Below, piece by piece: positions 27,828-60,471 of a stretch of DNA of 64,000 nt (position 1 is its first letter; each line of letters opens with the position of its first letter). The notes below the pieces were generated by a model, which was not told the origin of the DNA, searched no databases, and worked only from the letters and a program-made list of their open reading frames with translations. This DNA is from an uncultured Candidatus Saccharibacteria bacterium (lineage in GTDB: Bacteria; Patescibacteriota; Saccharimonadia; Saccharimonadales; Saccharimonadaceae): the NCBI GenBank assembly GCA_964630185.1, contig CAZVTQ010000003.1:109175-173174 (forward strand), read 5' to 3'. A program made the translations under genes and the position numbers.

Positions 27828-27905
27828 TGGTGATCCCACGGGGAATCGAACCCCGATTTCCAGGATGAGAACCTGGTGTCCTAAACCGTTAGACGATGGG
27901 ACCAC
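27828..27905 (-). tRNA. tRNA-Glu (anticodon CUC), CCA encoded
   Basis: GTGGTCCCATCGTCTAACGGTTTAGGACACCAGGTTCTCATCCTGGAAATCGGGGTTCGATTCCCCGTGGGATCACCA. Cloverleaf checked by hand: 7-bp acceptor stem, anticodon loop TTCTCAT, T-loop TTCGATT. Confidence 0.9.
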
Positions 27906-33002: not shown

Positions 33003-33215
33003 GATTACTCCTTTGTCGATGTGTAGGTGCAAAACTTTCTCTCGAAAGATTAAGTATATTTATAGCACTAATATGCTAATAAATCAACTTTATATCGTAC
33101 AGTTGTAACTTCTTATAGGGATTTATATATGCCCATCATATAAACACCTACAAGGTTAGCGAGACCGAGACTTTTTTACGAGTCTCGGTCTCATGTGAGC
33201 CATCCAGGCTCGCTA

Positions 33216-33512
33216 CTAACAACTGAAAGGGGACGTTTGATCAACACTCCTTCCAAGAGCATCGTCATGTGAATCGCCTGCCTTGCGGTAGCCGATGTAG
33301 AGATCAATGAGTCTCAAGTACTCATCTCTACAGTCGTCTTCTGCGAATTGGTCGTAGTCCGCGACGACCTCATCAACCTGTGTTTGAGTTATGGACGGAA
33401 CGTTTTTTCGCAGAACATCCTCTTGCTCTCCCTTGCCCGTGAAGTCAAGCTGATTTAGCGTTAAGATTGAAACCAGGCAAAAAACAGTAATCACCAACAA
33501 CCTCATATTCAC
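33216..33512 (-). CDS. Hypothetical small secreted protein
   Basis: Signal-like MNMRLLVITVFCLVSILTL. 98 aa. Confidence 0.45.
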   Translation of the reverse strand: MNMRLLVITVFCLVSILTLNQLDFTGKGEQEDVLRKNVPSITQTQVDEVVADYDQFAEDDCRDEYLRLIDLYIGYRKAGDSHDDALGRSVDQTSPFSC

Positions 33513-33687
33513 CCACTGTGTAGTTGTTTTTTGAAGTAGCTTGTTCCAATATAATCAGAACTTAAAAATATTATACAATGAAAATAATTATTACACAATT
33601 TTATATCGTACCAGACGAGTCGATATTTCGACTATTCTGGTACGAGGACAGAGGAGCTGGAGGCTCCGCGAGGCCTCGTAGCTAGAC

Positions 33688-40341: not shown

Positions 40342-40429
40342 GCCGCGGTGGTGGAATTTGGTAGACACGCTAGACTCAAAATCTGGTGAGCATTAGCTCG
40401 TGCCGGTTCAAGTCCGGCCCGCGGTACCA
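40342..40429 (+). tRNA. tRNA-Leu (anticodon CAA), type II with long variable arm, CCA encoded
   Basis: GCCGCGGTGGTGGAATTTGGTAGACACGCTAGACTCAAAATCTGGTGAGCATTAGCTCGTGCCGGTTCAAGTCCGGCCCGCGGTACCA. Acceptor stem, anticodon loop CTCAAAA and T-arm GCCGG/CCGGC checked by hand. Confidence 0.9.
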
Positions 40430-44981: not shown

Positions 44982-44991
44982 AATGAAAACG

Positions 44992-45022
44992 CCCCGTGTA
45001 AAAACACGGGGACTTGAGTTTT
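44992..45022. terminator. Hairpin terminator after tsaC
   Basis: CCCCGTGT-AAAA-ACACGGGG, with T-rich sequence on both sides. Confidence 0.6.
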
Positions 45023-45024
45023 GC

Positions 45025-45227
45025 GGCGATGCCGCCTTGTCACAGGGACCATTGGGTAACTCGTAGATCGTAGGGTGTCTAGGGCCTAGGCCAGTGAAGG
45101 ATATCTTCTTATTGACTCTTACGATGAACGCAATCACGTTTATGGTGTGATCCAAGGCGGCATTTTCGCCACTGCAGTGGTAGGACACTCAGGTTTGCAA
45201 CGCAGATAACCTGAGGGTGTCTCTTTT
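45025..45227 (+). ncRNA. Candidate sRNA of about 200 nt (rod-like closing stem plus strong terminator), identity unknown
   Basis: GGCGATGCCGCCTTG (45025-45039) pairs with CAAGGCGGCATTTTCGCC (45153-45170). The CCACTGCAGTGG hairpin follows. GGACACTCAGGTT-(12 nt)-AACCTGAGGGTGTC is followed by TCTTTT. The overlapping 80-aa minus-strand ORF has no support. Confidence 0.4.
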
Positions 45228-45486
45228 GGCATTTTTTATGAGGCCAGCTGAGACGCTGCATATTTTAGACGCGGACGGCTGTGAGGAGCTGTTTTCTATT
45301 CGTGTGATGAGCATGAAAACAGTTAGCTCTTCTTTGCTTGTCGTTGTCTTTACCTTTTGAAGGACATGCCGAAGTGATCAAATGAACACCTCAACAATAA
45401 AGCCTATACTACTCTTTAGTCTTGTAAGTGTCAAGGATTATTATCTACAAAATCAAAATAGACTACATCCAAACCACAACATATAA

Positions 45487-45515
45487 TTGACTTTTCTCTG
45501 TAAAATAGGTATTAT
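45487..45515 (+). promoter_or_regulatory. Candidate promoter TTGACT-N17-TATTAT upstream of the ParB-like gene
   Basis: The -35 is at 45487-45492 and the -10 at 45510-45515. This implies a hairpin-rich leader of about 165 nt before the ATG at 45687. Confidence 0.45.
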
Positions 45516-45686
45516 AATTATTAATTCTCTTCTTGAGAGTATTCCTGTGTATACAGGTGGTTCGTACGCTCAAGAGCATACACGAATAACGAGTTTTTGG
45601 TCCTCTAAAACCAATGTTCATTAACAAACGGGTTGCTACAGCTTGCTAAGCAAGCAATGCATACCCCTTGTCAAAAGGAGCCAGAA

Positions 45687-52251: not shown

Positions 52252-53104
52252 GAATTGAGCCAGCAATAGCTTCAGGCTCTTCATAGTGCGACAAATGCCC
52301 AGCGTCGGCTAGCTCTACCAACTGCGCTTGTCGAAATGCTTGGACGGCTTTTTTTTGCTGAATTATTGGACATTGTCCGTCTTTATCACCCCCGACAATA
52401 AGCACTTCTTTTGTAATTTTACTCGCCTCTTTGACTACACCTGATCGGTTAGTTTCGCGAAATAAACGATAGGTTTGCTTTGGATTTTGAACATATTTTG
52501 TGTTTTCAATGTGCTGGTCTATGATTTCATTTCTTAAGTCTTTGTCTGAAGTCGTTAACATATGTTTTGTTATCGTTTTTGTAACAAAATGGCTTTTAAG
52601 TACCTTTTTGCCAACAGGTCCAGGGGTTGCTCCAACCCAAAAGTACATCTGACTTATTAATTTACCTATGTAGCGTGCGTCGGGAAAACTAATTGGTGTT
52701 GCAACCGGACTTACTAATATAGTTTTTTTGTCACTTATACCAGGGTTGATTGTATGTAGCCTTGCTACAACGAGTGAACCGTATGAGTGGCCAAGTACCG
52801 TTGGTGGATTTTTTAATTGAAGTTTTTGTATTAAACCTGCTAGGACTTCGGCGTGGTATTGGATAGTCATTTTTTGCTTGCCAATTTCTGAAAGTCCAAA
52901 GCCTGGTAAATCGAGGGTTATCACCGTGAAGTAATTTGTAAGAAACGGTACAATCTTGTAAAAGCCACGGTGGTCGCCTGTAAAACCATGCACAAGAATA
53001 ATAACTGGTTGCTCTAGGCTACCATGCTGCCAGTAGTGAAGTTCGTTCCCCAGTATTTTCAGGGTTTTGTGTTCTGCGCTCAATGTCATGTCTACAGTAT
53101 ACAA
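52232..53104 (-). CDS. Alpha/beta-fold hydrolase
   Basis: HGFTGDHRGF and nucleophile elbow GHSYGS, with a C-terminal GHLSH. Confidence 0.75.
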   Translation of the reverse strand: MYTVDMTLSAEHKTLKILGNELHYWQHGSLEQPVIILVHGFTGDHRGFYKIVPFLTNYFTVITLDLPGFGLSEIGKQKMTIQYHAEVLAGLIQKLQLKNPPTVLGHSYGSLVVARLHTINPGISDKKTILVSPVATPISFPDARYIGKLISQMYFWVGATPGPVGKKVLKSHFVTKTITKHMLTTSDKDLRNEIIDQHIENTKYVQNPKQTYRLFRETNRSGVVKEASKITKEVLIVGGDKDGQCPIIQQKKAVQAFRQAQLVELADAGHLSHYEEPEAIAGSILSFLNK

Positions 53105-53131
53105 GCTGTTATAATAGATAGGATACTAACT

Positions 53132-54175
53132 ATGAAAAAAATACTTATAAATATGATCAGTGAAAGTGAAATTTCAGTTCGTGGTCACGGTGTTCACACT
53201 GCTTACTTAGAGCTTGCTAAAGCTTTGAAGGCACGTGATGATTGTGACGTTGTAGTGAATGAGTTTACACAAAATGTTCATGCTGATATTACCCACATTC
53301 ATACTATCGGACTACTTTCGCTGTCCAAGCTTCTCTTTGGTAAAGGAAAGAAAGTTATTTCTGCTCATGTTGTACCCGACTCTCTTGTAGGTTCAATTGC
53401 TTTAGCGAGCGTGTGGCTACCTCTTGCAAAAGCATATATGAAATTCTTTTATCGTCGCGGGGATAAAGTTTTGGCTGTTTCTAGTATGGTTGCTGATATT
53501 TTGCAAAACGACCTAGGGGTTGCAAAGGAAAAGATTGAAATTACCCACAATACTATTGATACATCTCAGTACAAAACTACTGAAGCAGATAAAAAAGCTT
53601 CACGAAAGAAACTCAATATTTTTGATGGTACATTTGTGGTAGCAGGTAACGGCCAAATCCAACCACGTAAACGTTTTGATAGCTTTGTTGAAATGGCCGA
53701 AAGCTTACCAGATATCAGTTTCATCTGGATAGGCGGAATTCCTTTTAAAAATATCGGGGCCGACTACAAAAAAATGCAGAAATTGATAGAAGAAACACCG
53801 AAGAATCTACTCGTTACCGGTGTTATTGAGCTTGAGGATGTAAAATCATATCTACAAGCATCCGACGTGTTTGTTCTGCCTGCTGAACAGGAAAATCACC
53901 CAATGGCTGTTATAGAAGCTGCAGCTGCAGGTTTGCCTATTGTACTGCGTGATATTCCAGAATATGACGATACTTTCGGTAACGATATTGTCAGGTGTAA
54001 AACTCAGAACGATTTTGTAAAAGCAGTACAAAACTTACGCGCAGACGACTCAATGTATAACAAATTTGTATCAGCTTCAAAAAAAATTGCACAAAGATTT
54101 GACTCCAGCGCTGGTGCAAGTCAAGCGATGGGCATATATAAAACACTTCTGAAAAATGAAGGAATTACTTCATGA
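53132..54175 (+). CDS. GT-B glycosyltransferase
   Basis: Start set at the ATG at 53132. PAEQENHPMAVIEAAAAGLPIVLRD. Confidence 0.75.
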   Translation: MKKILINMISESEISVRGHGVHTAYLELAKALKARDDCDVVVNEFTQNVHADITHIHTIGLLSLSKLLFGKGKKVISAHVVPDSLVGSIALASVWLPLAKAYMKFFYRRGDKVLAVSSMVADILQNDLGVAKEKIEITHNTIDTSQYKTTEADKKASRKKLNIFDGTFVVAGNGQIQPRKRFDSFVEMAESLPDISFIWIGGIPFKNIGADYKKMQKLIEETPKNLLVTGVIELEDVKSYLQASDVFVLPAEQENHPMAVIEAAAAGLPIVLRDIPEYDDTFGNDIVRCKTQNDFVKAVQNLRADDSMYNKFVSASKKIAQRFDSSAGASQAMGIYKTLLKNEGITS

Positions 54176-55533
54176 GAATAGGTCTTTTCACTGATACGTA
54201 TAGACCGTCGATAAACGGTATTGTATATGTTATTGATATAACCAAAAAACACCTTGAAGATCTCGGACATGAAGTATATGTGTTTTGTCCTGCAGACGGT
54301 GTTACTGCTACTAAAGTACGTGAAGATGAAGAGTATGGCATTATACGTTTTCCTAGCGTAAAGGGTGCTTTTTATGATGACTACAACTTTTCGTTTTTCT
54401 TCCCACCATGGAGTCTGCGTAAAATACGAGAACTTGACCTTGATGTCATACATATTTTCACCCCAGGTCAGATAGGAATACTTGGCATTAATGCGGCGTA
54501 CAAGACAGGCGTTCCGCTCGTCACTCAACATAGCACAGACATATACGAATATGTACGGCATTACCCTATGGTTTTACCTGGCCTCTTAATGCTTGTTCCT
54601 CTCACTCCATTTGCCACCAAATTTCACGGACGTGATATCAAGGAGCTCATCAAACTCTATATCCCCCGCCCTGGTGTGACGAAGTGGAATCAAGACATCA
54701 TAGAAGCAATGATAACTATTGTGTATAGTCGTTGCGATAAGGTTATAGCTCTTTCTCAAAAAAGCAAAAATCAACTAGAAAGCTGGATGGATGGCGAGGA
54801 GTATTCGTACCCTATAGATGTACTGCCAACTGGTATCGATGCCTTGCCTGAAGCTACTGAAGAATCACTCAAAACTTTTCGTTCGAAGTACGGCTTTGAT
54901 GAAGATGATGAAATAGTCACCTACGTAGGTAGGCTTGGAGCAGAAAAAAATCTTGCAAGTCTTATACCAATGATTGAGGAAGTTTTGGAGTCGCGTCCGA
55001 AAGCTAAGCTTTTGTATGTTGGTGATTTTGAATACAAAGCTGCACTTGAACAGCTTGCTAGCAAATCATCTGCTAGTGAAAGAATTGTATTTACAGGAGC
55101 GTTACCTCGGGAAAGTTTAGGAACAGTGTATGGGGCTACATCAGTGTTCGTATTCCCTTCTCTGACTGACACTCAAGGATTAGTCATACATGAAGCAGCT
55201 TTGGCTGGCTGTCCTATAGTGTTGATTGATAAAGGGGTAAGTGAAGTTGTTGAAGACGGCGTGAATGGGTACATTGCAGACTCTTCAGAGGATATGGCTA
55301 GTAAAGTCGTTCCAATACTTTCTGATAAAAAGTTACGTCAAACATTTGGGCAAGCCAGTAAAAAGCTCGCTGGTCGCTATACAGAAGTAAAACAGACGAA
55401 AAAACTAGAAACTCTTTATATCGATGCAATAGCTTCGCATACCGAAAAACGTCGTACATCTATGCAAAAAATTTATAAGCACATACTTGTCATGCGTCGA
55501 AAAATAGCAAAGCGCATTAGTACTGATTTATAA
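54172..55533 (+). CDS. GT4-family glycosyltransferase
   Basis: MRIGLFTDTYRPSINGIV and FPSLTDTQGLVIHEAALAGCPIV. 4-nt overlap with the upstream GT gene. Confidence 0.85.
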   Translation: MRIGLFTDTYRPSINGIVYVIDITKKHLEDLGHEVYVFCPADGVTATKVREDEEYGIIRFPSVKGAFYDDYNFSFFFPPWSLRKIRELDLDVIHIFTPGQIGILGINAAYKTGVPLVTQHSTDIYEYVRHYPMVLPGLLMLVPLTPFATKFHGRDIKELIKLYIPRPGVTKWNQDIIEAMITIVYSRCDKVIALSQKSKNQLESWMDGEEYSYPIDVLPTGIDALPEATEESLKTFRSKYGFDEDDEIVTYVGRLGAEKNLASLIPMIEEVLESRPKAKLLYVGDFEYKAALEQLASKSSASERIVFTGALPRESLGTVYGATSVFVFPSLTDTQGLVIHEAALAGCPIVLIDKGVSEVVEDGVNGYIADSSEDMASKVVPILSDKKLRQTFGQASKKLAGRYTEVKQTKKLETLYIDAIASHTEKRRTSMQKIYKHILVMRRKIAKRISTDL

Positions 55534-55539
55534 AAGGTC

Positions 55540-56008
55540 AAAAAAATAACCCCGAAAACCGAGCGAACACAACACCTGATGTGGTGTCGACGGCCGGTTA
55601 GGCTATCGCAACTTTCTCGTGACGCGAGTCAAGAAAGTTGTGTGCTGGGGTAGAATTGCCTTAACAACTCACCCCTTCACTTGGTTTTCGGGGGGCGCTA
55701 GGAGCGCACAGGACACACAGTTAAGTGTCGATTGTTGACTTTTCGTGGTACGCGGAGTGCCACGGAGCCGCACGAAGCTTGCCGGTGCTTCGCTTGCTTA
55801 CAAAACGGTCACACGGATAACCGCCGTCAACGTAAGTCTACTGTATCTATCCTGCAACCTTCCCCGGATCATGGGAGATTACTGGACAGGCTTTAAAGAA
55901 CTACTCGCTCCACGGCCGCCTACGAAAGTGTCGTGGAGCGAGCTTTGGATCACATGCCAACTACCCAACAAAACGAGATAAATACCTGGAATGATACTCA
56001 CCTCGGAT
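55540..56008 (-). ncRNA. Candidate large structured ncRNA A (about 470 nt); strand assignment tentative
   Basis: No ORF above 78 aa, and 37/60 GC in line 55741-55800. On the minus strand a TTGTTT-N17-TATTAT promoter (56044..56016) lies upstream. The 3' end is a 145-nt domain closed by CCCCGAAAACCGAG/CTTGGTTTTCGGGG, followed by a U-run. It shares a 3' module with RNA B. Confidence 0.5.
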
Positions 56009-56044
56009 CGGCACAATAATACCATATGCTACTATTTTAAACAA

Positions 56045-56616
56045 GAAAAAACCCGGAGATGCCGGATGAGGAGAGATCGCATGCGTAGTAGCGATCAGCA
56101 TTCCTCATCCGGACATTCCGGGCGATGTAGTGCTCCGTGTAACGGGAGCGAGTGACACCCAGCAGTGTCGATTGTTAACTACCCGAGTACTTTTGGAGTT
56201 TTTAGCTCCGTGTAAGCCTCGGTCTACTTAGGTCAGATCATTGGACGCATCGGAGTACGTACGTCCTACTTGCTTAGTAGCTTGTTTCTCACGGTCGGGT
56301 ACTGTTGTAACAATACCGAACCGTTAGTCAACTCAAGATTTGCTGTGCCCCGTCGGCTTTACCGAGTCCGACGGAATCTTTTTTAAGGTGTCCCGCTCCA
56401 CGATCGCTACAGATGACTGTAACGCCGTCCATGACCTGGTGGGTCACCGAATGAGAGACTGCCCTTTTGGGGCTATCATGGAGCGGGCTCTGTACTACGG
56501 ACTGCGATGTTGCATCACCACTCCGCTGGGCGGAGCCTAGGCAGTTGCCGTAGTGCGTGCCGTTCTCGCTTGCTCGATATGTACAACTAGAGAGTGAAAA
56601 TGCCTCCCACTTCTCT
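56045..56616 (-). ncRNA. Candidate large structured ncRNA B (about 570 nt); strand assignment tentative
   Basis: Nested long-range stems: CCCGCTCCA/TGGAGCGGG, CTACGG/CCGTAG, CTCCGC/GCGGAG, TACCCGA/TCGGGTA. The 3' end on the minus strand is CCGGATGAGGA/TCCTCATCCGG inside CCCGGA/TCCGGG, followed by UUUUUU. A possible TGnTAGTAT promoter at 56623-56652 overlaps the nrdB terminator. Confidence 0.5.
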
Positions 56617-56632
56617 TACACCATACTATCAC

Positions 56633-56663
56633 AAAAAAACCAGCCTAATCAAGACTGGTTTTT
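56633..56663. terminator. Bidirectional hairpin terminator downstream of nrdB
   Basis: AAAAAAACCAG-(11 nt)-CTGGTTTTT. Confidence 0.6.
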
Positions 56664-56679
56664 ATGGTGGGTAATTTAC

Positions 56680-57678
56680 TTACTTTTTAGTGCTACCAGC
56701 GTTGACTTCGTAGCTAGTATTTGTGCTTTCAAAGAAGTTTACGAGCTCGAGAGTGTCATTAGCTGCGGCCATCCATTTAGCTGGGTTGCTTACTTTGTAG
56801 TGTGCACCAAAGCCAAGTTCTTCGAGGCGGCGATCAGCAAGATATTTGACGTATTGGTTGATGTAGTCAGCATTGAGGCCTAAAATACCGTTTGGCAAAA
56901 GATCTTTGTTGTACTGCTCTTCCATCTCAACGCCGTCGAGGATCATTTGCTTGATCTCGGCTGCAAACTCTTCAGTTTGAAGGTCTGGGTTTTCGTCTAG
57001 AACTGTCAAAATAAGGTTTATACCAAACTTGAGGTGAAGACTTTCGTCACGAACTACCCAGTCAATGAGACTACCGAAGTTACGGAGTAGGTTTCGTTGA
57101 CGGAAGCTCAGTGCAACCATGAAGCCACTGTAGAACCAGAGGCCCTCAAGGATGATGTTGTAGGCTACGAGGTTTCGTACGAAATCCTTCTTACCTTCAG
57201 TGGTTGTGATGTCGATTTGTTCCTCAGTCATACGCTTAATGTATTTGACCTCGAACTCTTCTTTTGCAGCCATAGATGGAATGTTGATGTGTGCGTCGTA
57301 AGAACCTTCGCGGTCAACTGGGAATGTCTCAAGAACGTATTCAAAAGACATACAGTGGTTGGCTTCTTCCCACATTTGTTTTGCAAGATACATGTGTGCT
57401 TCTGGCGCATTGATGTAGGGGTATACACCGAAGGCTAGAGCTTTGTTTACTAGTAACTCGTTTGGGTTGAAATAACTCATTAGGAATGTGACTGCGTGTT
57501 TTTCTTCATCACTCATTTTGCGCCAATCGGCGACGTCTTGTCCTAGTTGGATTTCGTTTGGAAACCAAGTATTTGCAACTGCTTGTTCGTATAGGTCATA
57601 TGCCCATTGGTAACGAACTGGCTTGAGTCGCAGTCCATCTTGGATACCTGTTCCTAGTATGCCTTTTGTTTTTGTCAT
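56680..57678 (-). CDS. nrdB: Class I ribonucleotide reductase beta subunit with class Ic-like residues
   Basis: Ferritin-like di-metal motifs: NPNE(L), WEEANH, ILEGLWFYSGF, RDESLH. The residue at His+4 of the first ExxH is Phe (HCMSF), where the radical Tyr normally sits. Confidence 0.9.
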   Translation of the reverse strand: MTKTKGILGTGIQDGLRLKPVRYQWAYDLYEQAVANTWFPNEIQLGQDVADWRKMSDEEKHAVTFLMSYFNPNELLVNKALAFGVYPYINAPEAHMYLAKQMWEEANHCMSFEYVLETFPVDREGSYDAHINIPSMAAKEEFEVKYIKRMTEEQIDITTTEGKKDFVRNLVAYNIILEGLWFYSGFMVALSFRQRNLLRNFGSLIDWVVRDESLHLKFGINLILTVLDENPDLQTEEFAAEIKQMILDGVEMEEQYNKDLLPNGILGLNADYINQYVKYLADRRLEELGFGAHYKVSNPAKWMAAANDTLELVNFFESTNTSYEVNAGSTKK

Positions 57679-57684
57679 AGCAAT

Positions 57685-57864
57685 CTACTCGCAACCGTCG
57701 CAGATAAGACCTTCTTGTGGGTCAACCAATGCGTCCATGTTGATATTTTTTGTTGAAAACGTTTGAGAACCTTGCTTTTGCGCTTCGGCCATCGCTTCTT
57801 GGATGATCTTCATTCGTAGTTCGATTTCTTCTTGTGTTTCTTGTTGTGTATTGTTTGTGCTCAT
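57685..57864 (-). CDS. Small ORF (59 aa) between nrdA and nrdB, ending in CDGCE
   Basis: Not in the ORF track (below 60 aa). ATG at 57864 with GGGGG 9 nt upstream. Translation: MSTNNTQQETQEEIELRMKIIQEAMAEAQKQGSQTFSTKNINMDALVDPQEGLICDGCE. Stop TAG at 57685-57687. Confidence 0.5.
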   Translation of the reverse strand: MSTNNTQQETQEEIELRMKIIQEAMAEAQKQGSQTFSTKNINMDALVDPQEGLICDGCE

Positions 57865-57899: not shown

Positions 57900-60302
57900 T
57901 TATCTTGCTCTGGAGCCAAAGCCAAATCCTGACCCACTTGAGCTAGATTTAGCAATTGCTTCTGACTTATTAACTTTTGTTGTACTCTGCTCGGCCTGAT
58001 GTCGTGGTTTGACGTGTAGGTAGTAAGTAGTCTTGAGACCCTTTTTCCAGGCGCTCGAATAAATACCTACCATGTCGTCAATATCACGTGTCTCTAGATA
58101 CATGTTGCGTGAAATAGCTTGGTCAACCCATTTCTGAGCTCGCCCTGCTACTTCTATAAATGCGTCTGGAGACAACTGGAAACTGGTTTTGTATACATCT
58201 TTAATGTGTTGTGGAACAGCATCGATCTTCGTGAGGTCACCCTGATGTGCGAGGACGTCGTCTTTTACCTCAGTCCAAAGATCAAGTGCTTTCAGGTCGT
58301 TGACCAAGTTGACGTTTACTTCTAGGAACTTACCGTTAAGTGTTGATCGTGAGAAGATTTGTGAAAACTGCGGATCAAGACCTGGAGTTGTGCCTGCAAC
58401 GTGTGCGATGTTTGCTGTCGGTGCAATAGCCATAAGAGTTGCATTTCGCATACCTTTTTTGACTTTTTTGCGTAGTTTTTCCCAGTCGAGACGGGTTGTG
58501 CGGTTGATATCAATACCTACGCCACGGTCGATGCTAGCAAGCTCCACTGTGTCGAGTGGGATTAGTCCCTTGCTCCAGCCAGAGCCTTTGAACATTGGAT
58601 ATGCTCCACGCTCTTTGGCAAGCTCTGCACTTTCGTCGATTGCTTGGTAGCTGATGAACTCTACAAGTTGGTCAATCAAGTCGTATGCTTCTTCAGACTC
58701 GTATGAGTAACCAAGCTTCTCGATAACATCGGTGAATCCCATAACGCCTAGTCCAATAGCACGGTTTTGTTTGTTGGAGTGCATCGCTTCTTTAACTGGT
58801 GTGTTCGTGATGTCCACAAGGTTATCGAGTTGGCGAACAGCCGAACGAGTACTACGCTCAAGTCGCTTCCAGTCGAAGTCTCTTTTGTCGAGCAGTAAGT
58901 GTGCTGAAAGGTTCATGCTGACTAAGTTGCAAACTGCAGTGTTGTCTTTGTCTTGCGGTAATGTGATTTCGGTACATAGGTTTGAAAGATGGATTGTACC
59001 AGTGTTGTTGTTGAGTGCGCGTACGTTGATAGTGTCTTTCCAAGTAAGCCACGGGTGACTTGTTGCTTGGAGTACTATAAGAATTTGACGGAATTGTTCG
59101 CGAGCTTTGATTTTGTCGAATGTACGCATTTCACCTGCTTCAGCTAGTGCAATGTACTCGGCATAGCGTTTAGAAAAGTCGCTACCGTAGAGTTCGCACA
59201 AGTCTGGAGTATCAGCTGGGTCAAATAAGTACCAATCTTCGTCGTTGTCGACTCGTTTCATGAATTCATCTGACATCCATACGGCAGTGTTGGCGGTTCG
59301 CACACGGAGGTACGGGTCACCGGAGTTTTGCTTTAGGTCGAGGAATTGTGGGAAGTTTAGGTGCCAGTTTTCCATGTAGAAAGCCAAGGCGCCGGCTTTT
59401 TTGCCTTTTCGGCTCACAGCACGAAGAGCTGCATCGACAACGTTCATAAATGGAATTGGTCCAGTAGAAACAGTATTTGTACTCTTCACAGGTGAACCTT
59501 CGGCACGAAGCTTGTTCATAGAAAGGCCGATTCCACCGGTACCCTTAGATATCCACATAACGTCGCTGACGGTCTTTGCGATAGAATCCATGTCATCTTG
59601 CGTCTCCATGACAAAACAGTTGCTGAGCTGCGGGAAAGCACCTCCTGCGTTAACTCTTGTTGAGCCACCAGGCACGTAGTCGAAGTTACTCATGCGGTCG
59701 TAGAATTCCAAAGCTGCTGCTGTAGGGTTTTTCTCGTTAAAGCTAAGACCCATAGCAATACGCATCATAGTGTACTGTGGTGTTTCAATCGGTTCGCCGT
59801 CTTGTTTGCGCAAGGCATAACGGTTTTTACTGGTGATAACACCAAGATATTTCATAAGATTGTCTCGGCTTGGGTCGAGTGCTGCAGCTAGTTTTTTGAG
59901 GTCAAATAGCTTGCTGTCGCCCATTCGTTTGTCTAGTAGTTTGTCTTTAACACCTTGACGTATGTAAGGCGCAAAGTTTTTCTGATGAAGTGCTACAAGT
60001 TCTTCATCACTTTCATAGTCACCAAGGACATTCTTGTAAATTGTTTTTAGCAGCAATCGTGCAGCTATGATGTCAAAGTCTGGGTCGTCTTTGACGTTTT
60101 GCAAGGCTGCGTGAATGACTGCTTCATCTAATTGCGTTGTTGTAATGCCGTCGAACAGAGTCAAACTTACCTCTGTAGCAACTTGAATTACTTTTGATAT
60201 TTGATCATCAAGGCCGCGCGTTGCTCTCTCTAGCGCACGGTTGATTTTGTCGGCATTGTAGGCTTGTTTGCTGCCGTCAATTTTTGTGACTTGAATGTCC
60301 AC
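57900..60302 (-). CDS. nrdA: Class I ribonucleotide reductase alpha subunit with an N-terminal ATP-cone
   Basis: ATP-cone (VTKIDGSKQAYNADKINRALE). Catalytic regions SNLCTEI and TTYYL. Start set at the GTG at 60302 (TAGGAGGGTCACCAAAA upstream). The C-terminus is Ser/Gly-rich and has no Cys pair. Confidence 0.9.
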   Translation of the reverse strand: MDIQVTKIDGSKQAYNADKINRALERATRGLDDQISKVIQVATEVSLTLFDGITTTQLDEAVIHAALQNVKDDPDFDIIAARLLLKTIYKNVLGDYESDEELVALHQKNFAPYIRQGVKDKLLDKRMGDSKLFDLKKLAAALDPSRDNLMKYLGVITSKNRYALRKQDGEPIETPQYTMMRIAMGLSFNEKNPTAAALEFYDRMSNFDYVPGGSTRVNAGGAFPQLSNCFVMETQDDMDSIAKTVSDVMWISKGTGGIGLSMNKLRAEGSPVKSTNTVSTGPIPFMNVVDAALRAVSRKGKKAGALAFYMENWHLNFPQFLDLKQNSGDPYLRVRTANTAVWMSDEFMKRVDNDEDWYLFDPADTPDLCELYGSDFSKRYAEYIALAEAGEMRTFDKIKAREQFRQILIVLQATSHPWLTWKDTINVRALNNNTGTIHLSNLCTEITLPQDKDNTAVCNLVSMNLSAHLLLDKRDFDWKRLERSTRSAVRQLDNLVDITNTPVKEAMHSNKQNRAIGLGVMGFTDVIEKLGYSYESEEAYDLIDQLVEFISYQAIDESAELAKERGAYPMFKGSGWSKGLIPLDTVELASIDRGVGIDINRTTRLDWEKLRKKVKKGMRNATLMAIAPTANIAHVAGTTPGLDPQFSQIFSRSTLNGKFLEVNVNLVNDLKALDLWTEVKDDVLAHQGDLTKIDAVPQHIKDVYKTSFQLSPDAFIEVAGRAQKWVDQAISRNMYLETRDIDDMVGIYSSAWKKGLKTTYYLHVKPRHQAEQSTTKVNKSEAIAKSSSSGSGFGFGSRAR

Positions 60303-60471
60303 TTTTGGTGACCCTCCTAATTTTTTTGTATTATGAGCACTTATAAGCAACGAGGAGCCACACCACTCCTTTATGCTCGGTGATCGATGGAAGACATCGT
60401 TCTACACCCCCTGGTGTCTTCGGGCGAGACATAGCTATTTTGGATATACTATATCTAGCGCTTATGTTCCA

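Follow-up and report, generated by a model that had tools for sequence, protein, structure and literature searches.

Two adjacent minus-strand genes, probably for large structured RNAs of a new family, between a glycosyltransferase gene and nrdB in Saccharibacteria

Introduction

Saccharibacteria are ultra-small episymbionts with genomes of about 1 Mb and little non-coding DNA. What, then, is encoded in positions 55534-56679 of the 64-kb stretch of DNA analysed here (the window), which lie between a GT4 glycosyltransferase gene and nrdB? The nrdB and glycosyltransferase sequences assign the window to Candidatus Saccharibacteria/Saccharimonadales. An earlier note, made by reading the sequence, had proposed that this region specifies a pair of large structured non-coding RNAs (ncRNAs) on the minus strand. 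To our knowledge, only a handful of bacterial ncRNA classes exceed about 400 nt in length, and structured RNAs have hardly been catalogued in genomes of the candidate phyla radiation (CPR). Our literature search, directed at ncRNAs of this kind (large or structured) from Saccharibacteria or CPR, returned no prior description. The analysis presented below leads us to conclude that the region probably comprises two adjacent minus-strand genes, referred to as units A and B, for large structured trans-acting ncRNAs of a new family. Their spans fit the sizes of about 570 and 470 nt estimated in the earlier note:

About 56617 to 56046, minus strand: unit A RNA (type A1), about 572 nt, folding z = -7.9, with a six-sequence consensus
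About 56009 to 55540, minus strand: unit B RNA (type B), about 470 nt, folding z = -7.2, with an architecture common with A2 units

Results

Locus and composition

The region is bordered by two convergent genes, with nrdA following beyond nrdB:

54172-55533, plus strand: GT4 glycosyltransferase gene, 453 aa (Pfam Glycos_transf_1/Glyco_transf_4)
56680-57678, minus strand: nrdB (Pfam Ribonuc_red_sm)
57900-60350, minus strand: nrdA

With uncovered stretches defined at an open reading frame (ORF) cut-off of 120 aa, the 1146 nt of the region form the longest such stretch in the window, as had been claimed, the next ones being 675, 655 and 651 nt long. The sizes given earlier for its best ORFs were reproduced exactly:

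55745-55981, plus strand: ORF of 78 aa
56340-56540, plus strand: ORF of 66 aa
56557-56883, plus strand: ORF of 108 aa, antisense into nrdB

The proposed enrichment in G+C (GC) was also borne out, with a GC content of 0.507 in the region and 0.449 window-wide. Sliding GC values are 0.49-0.53 across the region and 0.39-0.44 in the flanks, and no other ORF-free stretch is GC-enriched (the other gaps have values of 0.32-0.44).

Conservation in relatives

Syntenic contigs (designated by L and a number) were retrieved through graded homologues of the glycosyltransferase, so that the sampling was independent of RNA conservation. An identical copy of the region is present on a 244-kb Logan contig, L001. 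An ORF-free gap with a GC content of about 0.50 was found at the same place in every fetched relative with a glycosyltransferase at least 64% identical to that of the window:

L015, glycosyltransferase 94% identical, gap of 1109 nt: units B and A, then an intact yecM
L040, 87% identical, gap of 599 nt: unit A, then yecM
L019, 86% identical, gap of 600 nt: unit A, then yecM
L025, 84% identical, gap of 1196 nt: two units, then yecM
L021, 77% identical, gap of 649 nt: one unit
L030, 76% identical, gap of 544 nt: one unit
L023, 73% identical, gap of 1110 nt: two units
L024, 64% identical, gap of about 870 nt: two RNA-like units, with different downstream genes

The more distant L008, L010 and L013 have protein genes at this position and no such gap. 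A further close relative, the JGI contig L038, was found by a conserved 28-nt DNA pattern in a metagenome scan. Altogether, the gap is present in ten further lineages from a single Saccharimonadales clade, and in eight of these it contains one or two units that can be recognised as A1, A2 or B. Homologues of A and/or B, with both sequence and structure conserved, are thus located between the GT4 gene and yecM/nrdB in L015, L019, L040, L025, L021, L023 and L038, which answers the call of the earlier note for homologues in relatives. Unit A is 81-87% identical to its counterparts in L038, L015 and L019, and unit B is 79% identical to that of L015.

The identity of unit A was compared with that of four-fold degenerate sites in the flanking genes:

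Window vs L015: glycosyltransferase 0.40, nrdB 0.71; unit A 0.83 (paired positions 0.91, unpaired 0.74)
Window vs L019: glycosyltransferase 0.32, nrdB 0.55; unit A 0.81 (paired positions 0.90, unpaired 0.70)

Because the identity of the RNA (0.81-0.83) exceeds that of the flanking four-fold sites (0.32-0.71), the sequence is clearly under strong purifying selection, which extends to stems, loops and junctions alike. A conserved reading frame, which the earlier note had named as the finding that would speak for a decayed or mis-assembled gene, was looked for among the A1 relatives and none was found. In the six A1 sequences the ORF positions differ, the 12-18 indels of a pairwise comparison include 10-17 whose length is not divisible by 3, and the variable columns display no codon periodicity (61/58/72).

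These data bear directly on the explanation that the region is decayed coding DNA, namely pseudogenes of yecM and a methyltransferase, or an assembly artefact. Its attraction is that in L010 the corresponding interval of 1.23 kb is occupied by yecM and a UbiE-type methyltransferase gene, and is thus close in size to the 1.15-kb region. However, tblastn of both L010 proteins against the region gave chance matches only, and L015, L019, L025 and L040 hold RNA units beside an intact yecM. Neither the frame-breaking indels and missing periodicity, nor the conservation far above that of synonymous sites, nor the compensatory pair changes described below are those of a decaying gene, and the same sequence is present on two contigs assembled independently from two different sequencing runs. 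The probability that we assign to this explanation is close to nil, and the yecM/methyltransferase reading is refuted as far as sequence analysis goes.

Structure and strand

The folding z-scores given above were taken against dinucleotide shuffles, of which 0/100 fold as well; on the plus strand the score is -5.06 for both units. An RNAalifold consensus of the six A1 units comprises 153 pairs at -160.5 kcal/mol, with 95.6% of cells paired. Thirteen of these 153 pairs are changed on both sides, in comparison to 6.2 +/- 1.7 in shuffles (0/500) and 0-4 with slid partners. In a cross-type set (alignment A6), made of three B units, the chimeric second unit of L025 (L025_2) and two A2 units, and covering eight helices with 66 pairs, the number of pairs changed on both sides is 30, compared with 13.5 +/- 2.5 in shuffles (0/500) and 4-9 after sliding. 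The central domain of about 100 nt, aligned from eight sequences, is 99.2% paired and contains four compensatory pairs. The predicted helices are conserved by compensatory change, and the structure is that of the minus strand.

Four kinds of signal favour the minus strand. The A1 structure contains 69 G-U cells that would be A-C on the other strand, and the consensus energies are better for the minus strand than for the reverse complement (A1, -160.5 vs -153.3; cross-type set, -37.6 vs -29.9). With R1, a covariance model of the central domain, minus-strand scores are 95-118 bits and plus-strand scores 15-30 bits (102.8 and 16.8 bits for the central domain of the window); the model also recognises the shortened domain of the first L025 unit (L025_1), which was outside its training set, with 29 bits. 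Finally, all stem-plus-U-run and promoter-like sites face the minus strand. The proposal of a pair of large structured minus-strand ncRNAs is therefore upheld by recurrence at the same locus, conservation beyond that of synonymous sites, compensatory changes and strand signals.

Inverted repeats were found at 55550-55567/55676-55693, 55609-55617/55632-55640, 56052-56072/56102-56122 and 56392-56407/56472-56487; another one, at 55904-55914/55932-55942, was not among the helices listed earlier. Five of the six sets of helices on that list were recovered, including CTACGG/CCGTAG enclosing CTCCGC/GCGGAG (helices 4-5). The sixth, TACCCGA/TCGGGTA, is absent from the comparative structure, in which those bases pair locally (helices 15 and 19).

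The predicted elements of unit A are, from 5' to 3':

56589-56616, minus strand: 5' hairpin H1, AGAGAAGUGGGAGG...CACUCUCU (helix 1 of alignment A5)
56492-56556, minus strand: P2 domain, a CUACGG/CCGUAG stem around two small hairpins (helices 4-6 of A5)
56389-56490, minus strand: central junction domain, a 13-bp closing stem CCCGCUCCAUGAU/AUCGUGGAGCGGG and three hairpins (alignment A7, 32 pairs)
56327-56345, minus strand: 5' strand of a long-range helix (motif M3, ...CAGCAAAUCUUGAGUUGAC; helices 12-14 of A5, 100% paired)
56160-56179, minus strand: 3' strand of the long-range helix (motif M4, GUUAACAAUCGACACUG; direct repeat D1; helices 12-14 of A5)
56046-56123, minus strand: terminal long hairpin (25 bp) and U-run, predicted to act as terminator (inverted repeat I1; helices 22-23 of A5)

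Those of unit B are:

55904-55942, minus strand: simple hairpin CUCGCUCCACG/CGUGGAGCGAG (inverted repeat I5, direct repeats D2/D3; helix 2 of A6, with 5 compensatory pairs)
55826-55831, minus strand: 5' strand of a long-range helix (GUUGAC; helix 3 of A6)
55713-55739, minus strand: 3' strand of the long-range helix (GUCAAC) and a GACAC/GUGUC hairpin (direct repeat D1; helices 3-4 of A6)
55540-55694, minus strand: terminal multi-branched domain with a closing stem of 15-18 bp, then a U-run (inverted repeats I2 and I7; helices 5-8 of A6)

A hairpin equivalent to H1 is present in the A2 and B types with 5 compensatory pairs, the P2 domain has G-C to A-U exchanges at two pairs, the terminal hairpin of unit A has an A-U to G-C exchange among relatives, and the terminal domain of unit B has 15 compensatory pairs in A6. 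In A1 and A2, conservation is highest in the central junction domain (56389-56490). The M4 span includes one copy of a repeat common to both units, and a GACAC/GUGUC hairpin starts inside it and extends 3' of it.

From these elements a common architecture can be drawn. It starts with the 5' hairpin, followed by the P2 domain (in A only), the central domain, and an A-rich linker with a hairpin; the long-range GUUGAC/GUCAAC helix then surrounds variable hairpins and is followed by the GACAC/GUGUC hairpin, the terminal domain and the U-run. The central domain is closed by a stem of 11-13 bp and forms a three-hairpin junction in the A types and a plain hairpin in B, so that the unit B hairpin at 55904-55942 is the counterpart of the closing stem of the A-type domain. 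The terminal element is a stem in A and a multi-branched domain in B, and would double as terminator. Units A and B share colinear blocks, namely the CGCUCCA/UGGAGCG stem arms, AGUWGACUWACG, AGUYAACAAUCGACACU, and the long terminal stem with its U-run, and the differences between them preserve pairing (C-G vs U-A in the stem, A-U vs U-A in the long-range helix). Because of the colinear blocks, the compensatory differences and the L025_2 chimera described below, the two units are, as judged from their sequences, paralogues within one family.

Transcription signals

The sequence points to two candidate tandem transcription units on the minus strand, each with a sigma-70-like promoter and a stem-plus-U-run end. 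The signals upstream of the two units are:

56632-56666, minus strand: nrdB intrinsic terminator hairpin and U-run (inverted repeat I4)
56623-56652, minus strand: unit A promoter-like site, with -35 TTGATT at 56652-56647, an 18-nt spacer, TG at 56631-56630 and -10 TAGTAT at 56628-56623
56016-56044, minus strand: unit B promoter-like site, with -35 TTGTTT at 56044-56039, a 17-nt spacer, TGG and -10 TATTAT at 56021-56016

The last of these is the TTGTTT-N17-TATTAT promoter that had been proposed between the two halves. The U-runs said to close both halves are likewise present on the minus strand, at 56051-56046 (unit A) and 55546-55540 (unit B), and the terminator scan matched both the terminal hairpin with U-run of unit A and the terminal domain with U-run of unit B. 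The promoter scan had a cut-off of 9/12; the unit A promoter (8/12) fell under it and was read from the sequence. Its -35 element lies within the loop of the nrdB terminator hairpin, the only resemblance of which in Rfam is to a generic terminator hairpin. In the relatives with yecM before unit A, the nrdB hairpin is gone and TTGATT is kept.

These promoter-like and terminator-like sequences, predicted to flank each unit, are conserved in relatives. The arrangement TTGATT-18-TGnTAGTAT is kept in L038, L015, L019 and L040, and the L025_1 version is TTGGTT-18-TGATACTAT. The unit B promoter has the same -35 and -10 in L038, and L015 has TACTAT after TGG. Canonical TTGTCA/TTGACA-17-TAnAAT sites are present in L021, L023, L025, L030 and L024; the units concerned are those of A2 type and those of L030 and L024. 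In the mechanism that we propose, each unit would be transcribed independently from its own sigma-70-type promoter and would end at its own 3' terminal stem and U-run.

Alternatively, the region could act in cis, as a long 3' untranslated region or terminator region of the nrdAB(-yecM) operon that stabilises the mRNA or insulates the convergent nrd and glycosyltransferase operons. The units share the orientation of nrdB and lie directly downstream of it, the unit A -35 is buried in the nrdB terminator loop in a promoter that matches the consensus weakly, and L015, L019 and L025 have no hairpin between yecM and unit A, all of which would fit such a role. On the other hand, there is a complete terminator between nrdB and A and another between A and B, and relatives retain the internal promoter-like sites. 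The operon is constant, yet the units beside it differ in number and type, and L024 has RNA-like units even though other genes take the place of its nrd side. The selected stretch, with over 500 nt of specific sequence and junctions, also goes far beyond what insulation requires. We consider a cis-acting role very improbable and retain the interpretation of A and B as separate RNA genes.

Evolution of the family

The types of unit present at the locus differ even between close relatives:

A1 and B: the window, L038 and L015
A1 alone: L019 and L040
A1 and an A2/B chimera: L025
A2 alone: L021
A2 and B: L023

These varying combinations at one locus indicate that the family evolves by tandem duplication, loss and recombination among A1, A2 and B at a fixed place within one Saccharimonadales clade. 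In L025_2 (L025, 6346-6926, minus strand), the 5' half including the central domain is A2-like and the 3' half, with the M3/M4 helix and the terminal domain, is B-like, which suggests recombination between paralogues. In the A1 unit of the same contig (7298-7373, minus strand), the central domain is swapped for a shorter element with CUGAUGAG that resembles a hammerhead core; it gave no hammerhead match in Rfam at E <= 1.

At the outer edge of this set, L024 (6471-7261, minus strand) carries a pair of RNA-like units, about 265 and 400 nt long, with z = -7.2 and -4.9, near-consensus promoters (TTGACT-17-TAAAAT and TTGACA-17-TAATAT) and no Rfam match. Together with the L030 unit (z = -4.7), which is also strongly structured, we regard them as positional analogues, in view of their location and orientation, their base composition, their structure z-scores and the likeness of some short motifs; their homology to A/B is unproven.

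The junction between nrdB and the glycosyltransferase gene varies in its gene content as well. It consists of yecM and a UbiE-type methyltransferase gene in L010 (9009-10237), of yecM and RNA units in L015 (8472-8981), L019, L025 and L040, and of RNA units without yecM in the window (55534-56679), L038, L021, L023 and L030. The 64-kb window itself yielded no homologue of yecM or of the methyltransferase at any position.

Variable copy number and chimeras among relatives might also betray a mobile or selfish element, or its remnant or cargo, for instance an ORF-less group II class C intron or another laterally acquired element. Class C group II introns insert just after terminators, and each unit starts just after a terminator hairpin; the GC content of the region is above that of the host (0.51 vs 0.45), and the more distant L010 has a methyltransferase gene and no RNA at the position. 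However, locus and orientation are fixed in all relatives, divergence tracks that of the flanking genes, and raised GC is expected of structured RNA in an AT-rich genome. Neither flanking repeats nor an integrase, reverse transcriptase or transposase gene were found near the units. No further unit copy is present in the 64-kb window, blastn of the region against phage and plasmid collections gave no match, and the motif AGTGTCGATTGTTRACT had 0 matches in viral contigs. As Rfam gave no group I or group II intron match at E <= 10 either, a mobile origin of these vertically inherited RNA genes seems to us extremely doubtful.

Comparison with known RNA families

A cmscan of the whole window with Rfam 15 at gathering thresholds returned two tRNAs only. 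The region 55400-56800, scanned at E <= 10 with lax filters, gave three chance-level matches (in the nrdB terminator and nrdB), five relatives' loci gave zero matches at E <= 1, and ARAGORN found no tmRNA in the window. The Rfam search suggested earlier thus identified no ncRNA family, and covariance models bear out the remark that the RNAs could not be matched to ROOL, GOLLD, OLE or HEARO.

As no Rfam model gave a relevant match to them at any of these thresholds, the units are not members of ROOL, GOLLD, OLE, HEARO or raiA (no match even at E <= 10), and are not RNase P, tmRNA (also by ARAGORN), SRP, 6S or an rRNA fragment. A housekeeping RNA is also made less likely by the one or two divergent copies per locus and by the speed with which the sequence changes among close relatives. 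Group I and group II introns were rejected, as there was no match to Intron_gpI, Intron_gpII or group-II-D1D4 at E <= 10 and the locus is single and fixed; an ORF-less group IIC intron, suggested by the position after terminators, was likewise rejected, with no intron core match and no sign of mobility. A riboswitch or other cis-acting leader was discarded because both units are downstream of nrdB, with terminators that point towards the 3' end of the convergently oriented glycosyltransferase gene, and neither has an ORF after it on the minus strand. An IscB/TnpB-type nuclease gene adjoins the units neither in the window nor in any of the relatives.

Pattern scans added one homologue. GACGRCGN{4,6}AGTNNTCTGNAGCGRTC had 6 matches in the metagenome collection, of which L038 alone is real, the other five having a GC content of 0.64-0.70 and no match by nhmmer or covariance model, and 0 matches in viral contigs. 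GACACN{3,14}GTGTCGATTGTTRAC had 5 matches in genome contigs, a chance number from unrelated high-level taxa and without an R1 match. The latter scan says little on distribution, because the pattern is not conserved even in the closest A1 homologues.

Other features of the window

The next-longest stretches without an ORF of at least 120 aa (791-1465, 33033-33687 and 44982-45632; 651-675 nt) have a GC content of 0.32-0.42 and no Rfam matches, and the first of them contains short ORFs of 79-82 aa. Between nrdA and nrdB, a 59-aa ORF (57685-57864, minus strand) ending in ...CDGCE is called in every relative (56-66 aa) and has no Pfam or NCBIfam match; it may be an unannotated small partner of ribonucleotide reductase. 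Upstream of the RNA locus, two consecutive GT4 genes (53024-54175 and 54172-55533, plus strand) overlap by 4 nt (ATGA-type coupling); they belong to a conserved cluster in which several GT4 genes are found together with alpha/beta hydrolases.

Discussion

Units A and B are, in our judgement, very probably real functional ncRNA genes on the minus strand. That they depend on their fold and act in trans is a step further, which we favour with less assurance. It is suggested by their size, their junction-rich architecture, the conserved unpaired nucleotides, and the absence of both a downstream ORF and repeated simple binding motifs. We regard cis regulators and simple base-pairing small RNAs (sRNAs) as unlikely. 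OLE, ROOL, GOLLD and raiA RNAs are thought to work through their folds; by analogy, the three-dimensional fold of A and B could provide a scaffold on which a protein or another RNA binds or the RNAs assemble with themselves. To any one specific biochemical role we would give at best a slim chance.

The principal alternative to a fold-based function is that the RNAs are trans regulators of the usual sort, either base-pairing sRNAs or protein decoys similar to CsrB or 6S, in which structure provides stability or a repeated display of binding sites. Each unit has its own predicted promoter and terminator, tandem paralogues are known for several sRNA and decoy families, and the unpaired segments are conserved (0.70-0.74 identity) and could be binding sites. 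Yet at 470-570 nt, with conserved helices taking up over half of their bases and with both multi-way junctions and long-range helices, the units are far beyond typical base-pairing sRNAs in size and structure; no repeated loop motif was seen on reading the unit alignments, and Rfam yielded no 6S or CsrB match. We consider this explanation improbable, though worth keeping in mind.

Several points weigh against the conclusion that A and B are two trans-acting RNA genes of a new family. The promoters, start sites and terminators are all predictions from sequence alone, and the promoter of unit A (type A1) resembles the consensus weakly (8/12 plus TG). Our covariation controls (shuffles and slides) are not a phylogeny-aware test such as R-scape, and the comparative set is small, with about 9-12 distinct units from one clade. 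When the L030 and L024 units served as nhmmer queries for the remaining loci, self-matches alone were returned, and no statistically detectable sequence similarity to the other units emerged. The distribution may be narrow, with one true match in the JGI metagenome collection and none in the genome collection, where the pattern was a poorly conserved one. Last, the gene neighbourhood (GT4 glycosyltransferases, an alpha/beta hydrolase, nrdA and nrdB) points to no partner protein, ligand or target.

That such small genomes retain over 1 kb of RNA genes under strong constraint implies an important function. The studied classes of large ncRNA (ribozymes, OLE, ROOL and GOLLD) have each shown unexpected biochemistry or architecture. 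The family comprises three paralogue types and a chimera, and one of its domains is elaborate in some types and a mere hairpin in others; it offers a compact natural comparison set for work on structure and function. Its discovery indicates that looking for GC-rich ORF-free islands is a workable approach in CPR genomes. As a speculation to which we attach a low probability, this could be the first class of large ornate RNAs specific to Saccharibacteria (CPR/Patescibacteria), in which A1, A2 and B hetero- or self-assemble into an RNA-only or RNA-dominated complex, or in which the junction domain (56389-56490) harbours a new catalytic or ligand-binding core. If so, an A1/A2/B assembly would be a hetero-oligomeric counterpart of the ROOL, GOLLD and OLE assemblies.

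Among known systems, CsrB/CsrC, GlmY/GlmZ and 6S-1/6S-2 resemble the A/B units as predicted here in that they exist in multiple related copies, have their own promoter and terminator and act in trans; they are, however, RNAs of 100-370 nt that form simple repeated hairpins or a rod, whereas the A/B units are larger, junction-rich and held together by long-range helices. ORF-less group II class C introns are similar in size and lie directly downstream of an intrinsic terminator hairpin, but the A/B units have no match to domain V/VI or D1-D4, occupy a fixed and vertically inherited locus, possess promoter-like sites of their own and are not accompanied by a reverse transcriptase. HEARO and the omega-RNAs of IscB and TnpB are likewise large structured RNAs seen as long ORF-free structured stretches; they adjoin or overlap the end of a nuclease gene, whereas A and B neighbour a glycosyltransferase gene and nrdB, with no second copy in the window.

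Another likeness is provided by the raiA motif RNA, a structured ncRNA of several domains that is abundant, stands alone and has no known function (PMC12968392). The A/B units are predicted to stand alone too and share its multiple domains and conserved architecture, but they are more than twice as long, belong to another phylum, have other neighbours and find no match in Rfam.

ROOL, GOLLD and OLE also resemble the predicted A/B RNAs: they too are hundreds of nt long, are encoded by stand-alone genes in GC-rich ORF-free islands, contain many conserved helices and junctions and have no obvious target in cis. ROOL and GOLLD are often associated with tRNA genes or prophage regions. The A/B units differ in their Saccharibacteria host, in that neither tRNA genes nor prophages lie next to them (the closest tRNA genes occupy 27828-27903 and 40342-40429, at 27.8 and 40.3 kb), and in the lack of a dedicated partner gene among the annotated flanks. 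No self-complementary loops were seen in the units by eye, in the course of reading rather than of a systematic search. Cryo-electron microscopy has revealed that ROOL, GOLLD and OLE form homo-oligomeric RNA-only complexes (PMC12286853) and that large ornate bacterial RNAs act as folded, often oligomeric, particles (PMC12286853, PMC12968392). A function based on the fold is presumed to be common to these RNAs and the A/B units. The A/B units are thus a new family, absent from Rfam, of an already known kind, the orphan large ornate bacterial RNAs, from which they stand apart by occurring as two or three divergent tandem paralogue types.

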